Sequence record: PZ513996.1
DNA from: a phage
Length of the DNA: 40,893 nucleotides
Reading direction: 5' to 3' (one strand)
The notes below the pieces were generated by a model. The model was not told the origin of the DNA and did no database searches. It saw only the letters and a program-made list of their open reading frames with translations. This document shows, one piece after another, positions 35,131 through 38,379 of this stretch (position 1 is its first letter; each line of letters begins with the position of its first letter). The position numbers and the translations under genes are program-made.

Positions 35131-38100
35131 ATGGCCTATAGCTGGCAAGAACAAATTCTACCAGCTGGTGCACAGACTGTCCCAGTAGAGATCAACTATC
35201 TCGACCGTTCCTACATTTACTTGTACGTGAACCGTGAAGAGGTATTTGATTTTACTTGGGACAGTGATACGCGCATCCGCTTTGACAAGCCTCTCGATGC
35301 AGAGAGCACTGTACTGATTGTACGTCGCACTGCTAAAGAGTTTCTTTACATCATGTTCTCAGAAGGCGCTGCCTTTATTAAGGAGAACTTAGACACTCAG
35401 AATACCCAGTTCCTGCACTTAGCTCAGGAACTGGTAGAAGGTCGCAGTATCGAAGGTTTCTTTGGTACTATCAACATGAACGGCTTCCGCATCATTAATC
35501 TGGCAGCAGGTAAGGACGCTACGGATGCAGTTAATAAGTCACAGCTGGATGAGGTGAGTACCAGGGTAGATAACATCGAAGGTGCATTTAACGGTGTTAC
35601 CTCCAGCTACCCTATGTACTTCAACACTACTGAACCTACTAAAGAGTTCCGAATTGCCCTTAACTTCACAAAGGCAGCAGTGTACATTAACGGGGTGTGT
35701 CAAACTCCGGGGTACAGTTACACCATTAGGGACAATACAGTAATACTAGCCGACCCTGTTCCCGCAGGTACTCACGTATTCATGCGACTAGGTGAGGATG
35801 TTCTGGAAGGAGGTTATGCTACTACTGAGAGTTTAGCTGCACTGAGTAACGCCTTAACTCGCATAGACGGGCCTGAGGTTAATCCTGAGTATTACCACCC
35901 TCATTGGAGAGATTCCTTTGACGTACGTGGATGGGGAGTAGCAGGTGATGCAGTTACGGATGATACGGCAGCACTTCAAGCCATGCTGGCAGCAGCGGCC
36001 CCTAATCAGTACATAGACGGTAAAGGTTTAACTTTTAAAGTAACTGCCTTACCTGACCTCAGCCGCTTCCGCAATGCCGCGTTTAAGTATGAGCGCTTAG
36101 CGGGTCAGCCTCTTACTTATGTATCGGAGGGTTATTTCGAAGCAGGTCTTACTAAGATTACAGACACCCCGTTCTACAATGCGTGGACTCAGGATAAGTC
36201 TTTCGTATATGATAATGTAATATACGCACCATTCATGGCAGGTGAACGGCATGGCGTACAGAACCTGCATGTAGCATGGGTACGTTCAGGTGACGATGGT
36301 CAGACGTGGACGATGCCAGAATGGCTTACTCCTATCCACCCTAACTATGCCTCAGGTGTTAACTACCATTGTATGAGCATGGGTGTTTCTAATAACCGCT
36401 TGTACATGCTAGTAGAGACCCGTAATCTATCTGACGCTAGGAGGGTACGGGCGGAGATGTGGTCGCGCCCAATGCCGTATGCTCGTAGGCCTACTGGGGG
36501 TATCAGCACAGTGGCTGGGGATAACTTCGCTACTGTAGTACTTCCTATGCATGGGCTTAAGGTAGGAGATACTATTAACTTCTCGAACTCTGGGGTTACG
36601 GGTGTTTCAGGTAATACTGTAGTACGTACCGTAGTTGACGCTAATACTATTACAGTACCTTTAACTAACGCAGCTGCCTCAACGTTGACCAACGCCGGGG
36701 TTACTTGGAGCTTTGGTACACGTTTCTGGGACTGCCAGTGGGAAGTGACCTTACTGCCGGGAATCGCATACTCTACTAACGCTGACTTAGCTGTAACTGA
36801 AACCCATAGCTTTACCGCCCTTGAAGGTAACGCAGTTGCAGTAGGTTATCATAACGGTGACGTCTCTCCTAGACGTTTAGGTATTCTGTACTTCCCTGAT
36901 GTGTACAACAATCCCGGAGTATTTGAACGTCGTACAGTGTCTCAGGAGTACGCGAACGATGCCTCCGAACCTTGCATACGCTATTACGACGGGGAGTTGT
37001 ATCTTACTACTCGGGGAACATCCGCCACCTCCGCAGGTTCTACCTTGGCACGTAGTACTAACTCAGGCTTGACTTGGGAGTACTTACGTTTCCCTAACAA
37101 GGTACATCACAGTAACCTACCTTTTGCTAAGGTGGGGGACGAGTTGTATATCTTCTCAAGCGAGCGGGCTGCAAACGAGTGGGAAGCGGATACCCCTGAT
37201 AACCGTTACAACGGTAATTACGCACGCACCTTTATGTGCAAGGTTAACGTCCGTAACTGGCCTAGCTCATTAGATGAGGTGCAGTGGTTTAATGTTACCG
37301 ACCAGATTTATCAGGGTAACATAGTTAACTCCTCAGTAGGGGTAGGTTCTGTATGCGTTAAGGATGGGTGGCTGTACTATCTGTTCGGCGGAGAGGATTT
37401 CTTATCCCCGTGGTCCATTGGAGGTAACTCTGCTAAGCGCTGGTACGTGCAGGATGGTCATCCTACTGACCTGTACAGCTACCGTATTAAGGTAGGTCCG
37501 CAGCAGCATGTGTCTCGCGACTTTAAATACGGGGCAGCACCTAACCGTACTGTACCTGTGTCCATGGGGGTAGACGGGTTACGCCATGTTTCAGCGCCTA
37601 TGGTCTTTGATGAGAGCGTAGAGGTTAACTCCTTACGTGTTACAGGTACTGGGCATAACGGAATCCCTGCTGTACGGTCTGAAGTACTTCTGGACGGGGA
37701 TTACGGTCAGATTTACAAGTCAGTGCCTACTGGTAACCCAGCACAGCAACGGCTTATTCTGAGCGGGGGGTCAGGTAACTCCGCTGCCTCTGGCGCTATT
37801 GTGCAACTCTATGGATCTAATCACAGTACGCCTAATAGGGCAGTCCTGTACGCAACGGGAGGTGTCTACACTCAAAACAACCTGCTACCTTATAACGACT
37901 CCTCTGTAGCATTAGGGGGCGCGTCTAATAGATGGAGTACGGTGTATGCTGTTACAGGCACTATCAATACTTCTGACGGTACTCTTAAAACAGCCCCGGA
38001 GGAAGTGGAATCGGCACTGTTAGATGCTTGGGCGGATGTACACATCATTAGCTTTAAGTGGCTTGACAGTCTAGCTACTAAAGGGGACGCTGCTCGTACT

Positions 38101-38379
38101 CACTTTGGTGTAATAGCACAGCAGGTGCGTGACGTGCTCGTTACGCACGGACTTATGGAGCCTGATGCTACTTCATGTAAGTACGGGTTCCTGTGCCACG
38201 ATGAGTACCCTGAGATGGTGGAACATGACGAGGAAGGTAATGTAAGTGTAATTACTCCTGCAGGAAGTCGTTGGGGTATTCGACCTGACCAGATGTTCTT
38301 CATTGAGATGCTGTACCAGCGTAGAGAGCTTGCCCGTCTAAAGGAGCAGGTAAAATCGCTGGCACATAATAAGGAGTAA
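35131..38379 (+). CDS. tail fiber/tailspike: T7 gp17-like adaptor + Asp-box (sialidase-like) domain + C-terminal intramolecular chaperone; endosialidase-like
   Basis: 1082 aa; N-terminus aligns with T7 gp17 (RIINLAAGKDATDAVNKSQL vs RIVNLANAVDDRDAVPFGQL); Asp-boxes SGDDGQTW and STNSGLTW; C-terminus LDAWADVHIISFKW...THFGVIAQQVRDVL typical of the auto-cleaving chaperone domain. Confidence 0.7.
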   Translation: MAYSWQEQILPAGAQTVPVEINYLDRSYIYLYVNREEVFDFTWDSDTRIRFDKPLDAESTVLIVRRTAKEFLYIMFSEGAAFIKENLDTQNTQFLHLAQELVEGRSIEGFFGTINMNGFRIINLAAGKDATDAVNKSQLDEVSTRVDNIEGAFNGVTSSYPMYFNTTEPTKEFRIALNFTKAAVYINGVCQTPGYSYTIRDNTVILADPVPAGTHVFMRLGEDVLEGGYATTESLAALSNALTRIDGPEVNPEYYHPHWRDSFDVRGWGVAGDAVTDDTAALQAMLAAAAPNQYIDGKGLTFKVTALPDLSRFRNAAFKYERLAGQPLTYVSEGYFEAGLTKITDTPFYNAWTQDKSFVYDNVIYAPFMAGERHGVQNLHVAWVRSGDDGQTWTMPEWLTPIHPNYASGVNYHCMSMGVSNNRLYMLVETRNLSDARRVRAEMWSRPMPYARRPTGGISTVAGDNFATVVLPMHGLKVGDTINFSNSGVTGVSGNTVVRTVVDANTITVPLTNAAASTLTNAGVTWSFGTRFWDCQWEVTLLPGIAYSTNADLAVTETHSFTALEGNAVAVGYHNGDVSPRRLGILYFPDVYNNPGVFERRTVSQEYANDASEPCIRYYDGELYLTTRGTSATSAGSTLARSTNSGLTWEYLRFPNKVHHSNLPFAKVGDELYIFSSERAANEWEADTPDNRYNGNYARTFMCKVNVRNWPSSLDEVQWFNVTDQIYQGNIVNSSVGVGSVCVKDGWLYYLFGGEDFLSPWSIGGNSAKRWYVQDGHPTDLYSYRIKVGPQQHVSRDFKYGAAPNRTVPVSMGVDGLRHVSAPMVFDESVEVNSLRVTGTGHNGIPAVRSEVLLDGDYGQIYKSVPTGNPAQQRLILSGGSGNSAASGAIVQLYGSNHSTPNRAVLYATGGVYTQNNLLPYNDSSVALGGASNRWSTVYAVTGTINTSDGTLKTAPEEVESALLDAWADVHIISFKWLDSLATKGDAARTHFGVIAQQVRDVLVTHGLMEPDATSCKYGFLCHDEYPEMVEHDEEGNVSVITPAGSRWGIRPDQMFFIEMLYQRRELARLKEQVKSLAHNKE

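Follow-up and report, generated by a model that had tools for sequence, protein, structure and literature searches.

Few phage depolymerases are as well understood as the endosialidases, which are applied as polysialic-acid probes and anti-K1 agents. For the enzyme of coliphage K1F (endoNF), five catalytic residues (H350, R549, E581, R596, and R647) have been listed, the barrel is known to carry a polysialic-acid binding site, and specificity is tuned by the stalk and barrel regions; K410 of the same enzyme was reported to be essential in vitro and dispensable in the phage context (PMC12632334). A Ser/Lys dyad plays a role in the self-cleavage of S74 domains (PMC3742443). Tailspike adapters form a second group of relevant proteins: gp44 of Shigella phage HRP29 has been called a tailspike adapter and assigned to a gp44/gp52 complex, and gp47 of Pectobacterium phage PhiM1 is likewise a spike adapter. 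Two depolymerases can also be combined on one tail. In K1-5, an endosialidase and a K5 lyase are both mounted on a separate small adapter protein, and Klebsiella podophages employ two-depolymerase anchor-and-branch systems.

The gene considered here (35131..38379, + strand) lies in a window of 40,893 nucleotides (PZ513996.1), by which we mean the whole stretch of DNA analyzed, and consists of a single, intact open reading frame of 1082 codons plus the stop codon. With a probability of roughly 0.9, its product is the homotrimeric endosialidase tailspike of a coliphage from the phiKMV-like Slopekvirinae, with maturation and action predicted by homology to the K1F and phi92 enzymes. According to this proposal, the 1082-aa precursor would trimerize with the aid of its C-terminal chaperone domain, which would fold the stalk and then excise itself. 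The mature spike, anchored on the tail by an N-terminal module of the T7 gp17/HRP29 gp44 type, would enable the virion to bore its way through the K1 capsule of E. coli.

This complete tailspike precursor gene corresponds to XXQ42890.1, with 100% identity to its counterpart in Escherichia phage vB_EcoP_P64441 (PQ847473.1, Slopekvirinae), where it is labeled endo-N-acetylneuraminidase in GenBank. The endosialidase identity is correct but ordinary, as the protein is a typical member of a well-studied family and its annotation is already public. The paper describing phage P64441 (Li et al. 2025, Virology 609:110570) deals, by its title, with uropathogenic E. coli. The host field of its record reads only "Escherichia coli"; a K1 host may reasonably be inferred.

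Rather than native DNA, the window consists of sense-oriented coding pieces of PQ847473.1 joined head to tail, so that its genes appear in reversed order and the intergenic DNA has been lost. Within it, the endosialidase gene is preceded by a terminase gene and followed by a gp16-like one, a neighborhood that was rejected as evidence because it is an artifact of concatenation; for the same reason, any findings from this window that are based on gene order or intergenic DNA need re-checking. The native order, found in PQ847473.1 and in two independent metagenomic contigs, is gp16-like protein, endosialidase, small terminase, and large terminase; in PQ847473.1, as in the contigs L007 and L008, the gp16-type internal virion protein gene is immediately followed by the endosialidase gene. 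In native DNA, a GGAG Shine-Dalgarno motif is located 8–11 nt 5' of the ATG. Compared with the 98%-identical L008 homolog, the gene differs mostly by synonymous changes (44 of the 64 nucleotide differences fall at codon position 3). A megablast search of the gene against phages returned only the self-hit, and there is thus no sign of recent transfer at the DNA level.

The N-terminal adapter and a second tailspike

The tail-anchor and adapter module spans aa 1 to approximately 230 (35131..35820, + strand), with matches to PF03906, PF05662, 8ES4_G, and 8VBX. It is composed of a T7 gp17-type N-domain (aa 14–140), a YadA-stalk-like coiled segment (aa 120–159), and a β-rich gp44 C-domain. The sequence-only reading had described this region as a T7 gp17-like adaptor, and the PF03906 match at aa 14–140 (46.2 bits against a cut-off of 25.2) bears out that much; as a refinement, the module shares just 28% identity with its K1F counterpart and is a tailspike adapter of the HRP29 gp44 type. 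In a sequence search of the PDB, residues 1–243 of HRP29 Gp44 (8ES4_G) matched aa 1–239 (E=3e-85), and PhiM1 gp47 (8VBX) matched aa 126–245. Alignment with HRP29 gp44 and PAS7 gp17 placed the end of gp44 homology near the motif RLGEDV, at about aa 228. Homology between the first ~230 aa and the HRP29 adapter extends over the whole of the latter.

A junction or linker follows at aa 231–270 (35821..35940, + strand), where adapter homology ends and endosialidase homology starts; tblastn matches to the phi92, K1G, and K1H enzymes begin at aa 224–238. A search of 5.8 billion protein clusters turned up the resulting fusion in only three, and a scan of IMG/VR with the adapter/enzyme junction yielded seven loci, all matching the adapter part only and none carrying the fusion. 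In the phage collection searched, this was the sole Slopekvirinae-type genome with an endosialidase.

A probable partner of the endosialidase is encoded at 265..1827 (+ strand), a second tailspike of 520 aa whose gene is natively positioned directly after that of the endolysin. In place of a head-binding domain, it carries a 23-aa N-terminal peptide that includes the short conserved sequence MTLVANIEV, and its body, from aa 24 onward, corresponds to residues 142–638 of a P22-like prophage tailspike. Bodies 66–82% identical to it are carried by P22-like prophages in E. coli and Salmonella genomes. In P64441, L007, L008, HRP29, PAS7, phiKDA1, IK_ECO1, and Peggy alike, the endolysin gene is followed by one for a tailspike. 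When the post-endolysin proteins of these phages were compared (all but that of L008, whose RBP2 is identical to that of P64441), an N-terminal peptide of the form M[ATS]LVxN[IL]xV was found to be common to them, but their bodies differed. The bodies from P64441 and L007, both of which carry an endosialidase, share no detectable similarity. A sequence search of the PDB with the second tailspike returned no match, and the only profile match, to a P22-type head-binding domain, was discarded because it arose from other members of the alignment and that domain is absent here. Structure prediction from a 22-sequence alignment reached a mean pLDDT of 42.9, and the model was kept out of the fold search.

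We infer that the second tailspike belongs to the same tail-fiber complex as the endosialidase, and the native position of its gene after that of the endolysin suggests a branched, two-spike tail. Specifically, the gp44-like part could also dock the second tailspike through the short N-terminal peptide of the latter, yielding a branched two-enzyme fiber. The endosialidase protein would then serve as both depolymerase and docking platform, with a complete gp44-type adapter fused to the enzyme and also carrying an exchangeable 520-aa spike, a proposal to which we give even odds. The alternative, possible though clearly the less favored, is that the endosialidase spike is the sole function of this protein and that the fiber is unbranched, the 520-aa spike attaching elsewhere on the tail or being used alternatively. 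Consistent with an unbranched fiber, the conserved peptide is short, and HRP29 gp52, when sought in the solved HRP29 tail entry, is absent as a chain. On the other hand, the whole gp44 adapter has been kept ahead of the endosialidase, and the combination of conserved synteny with a conserved N-peptide on otherwise unrelated spike bodies is most simply explained by docking to a conserved adapter.

Should the branched arrangement hold, the virion would bear six branched two-enzyme tail fibers that strip the polysialic-acid capsule first and then attack another surface glycan of that host, probably its O-antigen. Another possibility is that the second spike would widen the host range to non-K1 strains. 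One more endosialidase, carried by a published therapeutic-candidate phage and already annotated there, contributes little. What modest further value it has lies in the grafting of the enzyme onto a tailspike adapter that probably still bears a second spike, which makes it a clear natural example of recombination among receptor-binding modules and a potential template for the engineering of two-enzyme spikes.

Catalytic part and likely substrate

A profile search matched all four endosialidase Pfam domains, with the accessory domains in canonical order, in addition to the S74 domain and the T7 tail-fiber N-domain. The endosialidase N-terminal extension (aa 271–336; 35941..36138, + strand; PF12218, E=4e-29) is followed by the catalytic six-bladed β-propeller (aa 339–788; 36145..37494, + strand; PF12217, E=1e-197), into which a β-barrel is inserted (aa 449–531; 36475..36723, + strand; PF12195, E=2.5e-28), and then by the stalk (aa 791–947; 37501..37971, + strand; PF12219, E=3e-59), with T947 as the predicted mature C-terminus. 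Sequence matches in the PDB included 4HIZ (E=0) and K1F endoNF (1V0E, E~1e-240). An AlphaFold monomer model, with pLDDT values of 80–94 over aa ~400–650 and low confidence in the trimeric regions, was searched with Foldseek; the best PDB matches were phi92 4HIZ (E=1e-74, 70% identity), K1F endoNF (3JU4), the 3GW6 chaperone, and the HRP29 tail. Both profile search and structure prediction thus uphold the initial identification as an endosialidase. All five K1F catalytic residues are conserved, as H374, R581, E613, R628, and R679, respectively, as are the supporting residues Q330, D331, H527, S528, and N699. The protein is almost certainly a phage endosialidase (GH58), predicted to digest the polysialic-acid (K1-type) capsule of E. 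coli.

The phi92 record lists cleavage of the mixed α-2,8/α-2,9 K92 polymer as well as of K1, and thus K1 is not the sole possible substrate here. An active enzyme that naturally acts on something other than, or in addition to, the α-2,8 K1 polymer, such as the alternating α-2,8/α-2,9 K92 polymer or an O-acetylated form, is in our view improbable, though worth weighing, as phi92 is the nearest characterized relative (69% identity in the mature catalytic part). The stalk and barrel, which tune specificity in K1F, are moreover the most divergent parts of the protein (45–62% identity). Of the residues that we take to form the K1F stalk site (R837, S848, and Q853), S848 and Q853 are not conserved in the aligned protein. 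Nevertheless, the protein has the same active-site residues as the K1F enzyme, and the equally close K1G and K1H enzymes come from phages recorded on O18:K1:H7 hosts. K1 is also far commoner than K92 among extraintestinal E. coli.

The two Asp-boxes noticed in the sequence-only reading are both present. The first (SGDDGQTW; aa 386–393, nt 36286–36309) is identical to its counterpart in the K1F-type enzyme, and the second (STNSGLTW; aa 642–649, nt 37054–37077) also aligns with the corresponding K1F-type box (SRDIGQTW) but is degenerate, as Asn replaces the name-giving Asp. Two matches to S.[DN].G.[TS]W were counted in the protein, and none of its 20000 shuffled versions reached that count. The degenerate box, together with the K1F K410 equivalent, which is Asp here and Asn in phi92, could be taken to indicate a spike that binds polysialic acid but has no catalytic activity. 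We regard such a loss of activity as very unlikely, because the catalytic and supporting residues are all conserved and because the phi92 enzyme, in which K410 is likewise missing and the second Asp-box divergent, is nevertheless annotated as active; Asp-boxes are, besides, structural rather than catalytic. A non-sialidase β-propeller with coincidental Asp-boxes, an outcome that the initial reading had named as its own refutation, has a negligible chance given the PF12217 match, the identity of 69% to a solved endosialidase, the shuffling result, and a fold search in which even distant propeller matches were exclusively exo- and trans-sialidases.

The C-terminal chaperone and its predicted self-cleavage

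The chaperone segment initially proposed at the C-terminus is well supported. The intramolecular chaperone, a putatively self-cleaving S74 domain, comprises aa 948–1082 (37972..38376, + strand); PF13884 (Peptidase_S74) matched aa 948–1007 with 46.3 bits against a cut-off of 22, and the K1F chaperone fragment 3GW6 matched aa 847–1077 by sequence (E=3e-66) and was recovered by fold search as well. At the predicted cleavage site lies a Ser/Lys pair, S948 (nt 37972–37974) and K953 (nt 37987–37989), five residues apart and aligned with S911/K916 of the K1F-type enzyme and S757/K762 of phi92. The chain in 4HIZ ends at the residue aligned with T947, and the mature peptide in the phi92 record ends at T756, the homologous position. 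Self-cleavage between T947 and S948 by means of S948 and K953, with release of the S74 domain, is predicted by homology to these two enzymes.

Comparison with known systems

In its catalytic module, the protein has 64–69% identity to the phi92, phAPEC8, and K1G/K1H enzymes, compared with just 54% to that of K1F. The closest structurally characterized relative, phi92 endoN92 (gp143; 4HIZ), shares 68.7% identity over aa 271–947 and 62% over the chaperone domain, as well as the domain order, the catalytic residues, and the cleavage site ...TGTINT|SDGTLKT. However, phi92 is a 148-kb myovirus, and the N-terminus of its enzyme is short and unrelated (10% identity across the few residues that align), in contrast to the T7/gp44-type anchor found here.

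In overall architecture, the protein resembles K1F endoNF (1V0E, 3GVL, and 3JU4; chaperone 3GW6), as had been proposed from the outset: the T7-type anchor, N-extension, propeller, barrel, stalk, and S74 chaperone are all present. The two also have in common the catalytic residues, the Ser/Lys pair, and a gene position directly after a gp16-type gene. They differ in sequence (54% identity for the catalytic part, 28% for the N-terminal module) and in the segment joining anchor and enzyme, which contains PF18668 in K1F-type proteins and a YadA-stalk-like segment plus the gp44 C-domain here. The phages themselves belong to different groups, K1F to the Studiervirinae (T7-like) and the present phage to the Slopekvirinae (phiKMV-like).

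K1-5 and the Klebsiella two-spike phages offer a parallel, in that a single short tail may here, too, combine an endosialidase with another glycan-degrading spike that can be exchanged. Unlike in K1-5, where the spikes are carried by a separate adapter, the first spike and the adapter are a single polypeptide here, and the body of the second spike resembles P22-like prophage tailspikes rather than a capsule lyase.

The adapter itself can be compared with the gp44/gp52 tailspike system of Shigella phage HRP29 (Buco; 8ES4), with which the gp47/gp39 adapter/spike pair of Pectobacterium phage PhiM1 is grouped. Residues 1–239 align with the whole 260-aa gp44 at ~59–62% identity, the two genes occupy the same place in their genomes, and the partner tailspike is likewise encoded after the endolysin and begins with a similar N-terminal peptide. 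Whereas gp44 stops after the adapter, in the present protein the adapter continues into an 850-aa endosialidase and chaperone.

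The endosialidase gene and its native setting

The gene under study is a single unbroken ORF of 1082 aa (35131..38379, + strand), which megablast matched over its full length and at 100% identity to a gene of Escherichia phage vB_EcoP_P64441 (P64441; PQ847473.1). This phage, the subject of a paper by Li et al. (2025; Virology 609:110570), is placed by its record in the Autographivirales, Autoscriptoviridae, Slopekvirinae. The corresponding product, XXQ42890.1, is labelled 'endo-N-acetylneuraminidase'; thus, the identification of an endosialidase as such was already known. A GGAG motif lies 8-11 nt 5' of the ATG in the native DNA, and 44 of the 64 nucleotide differences from the gene of L008, a metagenomic contig encoding a 98%-identical enzyme, fall at codon position 3, indicating that the gene is expressed and under purifying selection.

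BLAST of the whole window against PQ847473.1 revealed that the window does not represent contiguous native sequence. Rather, it consists of approximately 60 sense-oriented coding pieces strung head to tail in the order of rising record coordinates, with one piece (22441-22565) taken from the record's opposite strand. Because all annotated genes of PQ847473.1 are carried on the minus strand, the window order is the reverse of the biological order and intergenic DNA is absent; findings from the concatenated window that draw on the order of genes, or on promoters, terminators or repeats between genes, are therefore unreliable. In transcription order, genes for internal virion proteins and a gp16-like exotransglycosylase are followed by the endosialidase, small terminase and large terminase, and then by a small ORF, spanin, holin, endolysin and a second 'tail fiber protein'. 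This native order is present in PQ847473.1 and, independently, in the metagenomic contigs L008 and L007.

The gp16-like internal virion/exotransglycosylase gene itself appears in the window as two halves (1828-3210 and 38380-40893); measured against the L008 homologue, which is intact and 1256 aa long, these cover aa 1-461 and aa 421-1256. The gene is split because a 127-bp duplicated end (record 1-127 = 42834-42960) remains in the circularised GenBank record, and this duplication resembles an overlap created by assembly more than a biological feature. For the DNA polymerase (window 22559-24897), the annotation gives two CDS that overlap (record 21620-22771 and 22764-23909), which may mean that the gene is truly in two parts or that a frameshift or a sequencing error interrupts it. 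Two genes of this lytic podophage carry the annotation of pentapeptide repeat-containing proteins (window ~21670-22251 and ~28011-28551; record 20490-21071 and 27205-27792), the first of which has an internal repeat with 85% identity.

Domain architecture and conserved residues

The sequence-only reading had proposed a likely endosialidase with a T7 gp17-type N-terminus, two Asp-boxes and an auto-cleaving chaperone, and the N-terminus, Asp-boxes and chaperone domain were all recovered. PF03906 matches aa 14-140 above its curated cut-off. The first Asp-box, SGDDGQTW (aa 386-393), is the same as the K1F-type motif, while the second, STNSGLTW (aa 642-649), aligns opposite the K1F-type SRDIGQTW, with Asp replaced by Asn; a relaxed Asp-box pattern occurs twice in the protein, and at least two occurrences arose in 0 of 20000 shuffles. 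The C-terminal chaperone was matched by PF13884 (aa 948-1007) and by 3GW6 (aa 847-1077).

Pfam found all endosialidase domains plus Peptidase_S74 in canonical order: End_N_terminal (aa 271-336, E=4e-29), End_beta_propel (aa 339-788, E=1e-197) with End_beta_barrel as a propeller insert (aa 449-531, E=2.5e-28), End_tail_spike (aa 791-947, E=3e-59) and Peptidase_S74 (aa 948-1007, E=5e-12). In the sequence search against solved structures, 4HIZ, the endosialidase of phi92, ranked first (E=0) and K1F endoNF second (E~1e-240). The AlphaFold model has a mean pLDDT of 64.6, reaching ~80-94 over most of the propeller and barrel, with low confidence in the stalk and coiled parts, which depend on the trimer. 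Foldseek against the PDB ranked 4HIZ first (E=1e-74, 70% identity), then K1F structures, the 3GW6 chaperone and the HRP29 tail. Its propeller matches beyond the endosialidases were all bacterial or trypanosomal sialidases, which argues against a non-sialidase propeller. The protein thus carries every feature scored in silico for the endosialidase family, the S74 chaperone family and the T7-type anchor, supporting the endosialidase interpretation.

Residues were mapped by alignment with phi92 gp143 and the 1064-aa K1F-type enzyme of the Kayfunavirus PR_Kaz2018, which equals the K1F-type cluster representative in length. The PR_Kaz2018 enzyme was assumed to share its numbering with K1F endoNF, and the ten literature-named residues checked against it all lie where expected. 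These comprise the key catalytic residues of K1F, H350, R549, E581, R596 and R647 (PMC12632334), which correspond to H374, R581, E613, R628 and R679 in the P64441 protein, and the supporting residues Q330, D331, H527, S528 and N699 (K1F numbering), which are likewise kept. K585 of K1F is replaced by Arg, and K410 by Asp (Asn in phi92). The predicted cleavage site lies between TGTINT and SDGTLKT, a sequence shared with phi92, whose mature enzyme is annotated to end at the homologous Thr; the 4HIZ chain also stops there. S948 and K953 correspond to the Ser/Lys catalytic pair of the S74 chaperone family.

An adapter fusion and a candidate second spike

The Shigella phage HRP29/Buco has a 260-aa gp44 (8ES4_G) that can be aligned over its whole length with aa 1-239 (E=3e-85); gp44 is termed a tailspike adapter and is part of a gp44/gp52 complex. 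In addition, aa 126-245 align with PhiM1 gp47, which likewise 'adapts' a spike trimer. The adapter is common to related Slopekvirinae-type phages with C-terminal extensions of varying length, giving totals of 260 aa in HRP29, 396 in Peggy, 402 in PAS7, 502 in IK_ECO1 and 526 in phiKDA1; at 1082 aa, the P64441 protein is the longest of those compared. Adapter homology stops near aa 228 and endosialidase homology starts at aa ~224-250, which suggests a clean boundary between modules. The fusion was found in only three of 5.8 billion protein clusters, namely that of the P64441 protein itself and those of one 98% and one 74% relative; IMG/VR contained no loci spanning the junction, and other full-length matches in the phage collection were confined to K1F-type phages. 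The combination of a gp44-type adapter with an endosialidase is thus uncommon in a phiKMV-like phage.

Directly 3' of the endolysin in native order lies the second spike (window 265-1827, 520 aa), which gives a weak beta-helix signal. Its aa 24-520 share 69% identity with residues 142-638 of P22-like prophage tailspikes of E. coli and Salmonella (66-82% across such tailspike bodies), and a 23-aa peptide replaces the ~140-aa P22 head-binding domain. This P22-type body was not found in other sequenced phages of the collection. The N-terminal peptide, MTLVANIEV..., fits the pattern M[ATS]LVxN[IL]xV, common to the post-endolysin spikes of L007, phiKDA1, IK_ECO1, Peggy and PAS7 and looser in HRP29 gp52; these spikes differ in body despite the common peptide. 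The L007 spike (15577-17175, 532 aa) has a weak pectate-lyase-like match and no detectable similarity to that of P64441 beyond the peptide. Because L007 pairs a 74%-identical endosialidase with a wholly different second spike, the latter is exchanged independently of the enzyme. The simplest reading of the shared peptide is that it docks on the conserved adapter, which would give P64441 a branched fibre with two enzymes, an arrangement to which we assign roughly even odds. The second spike probably degrades an O-antigen.

Relationship to known endosialidases

The domain architecture, residue conservation and genome context were observed directly, and close homology to the K1F and phi92 enzymes suggests that the spike would trimerise, fold with chaperone help, self-cleave, attach to the tail and cleave polysialic acid. 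The sequence is compatible with a specificity for K1 alone as well as for both K1 and K92. In its mature catalytic part, the P64441 protein shares 68.7% identity with phi92 and 53.9% with the K1F-type enzyme, while K1G/K1H siphovirus and phAPEC8-type myovirus enzymes share ~64-65% over aa 224/238-1077. The N-terminal modules of P64441 and K1F are only 28% identical.
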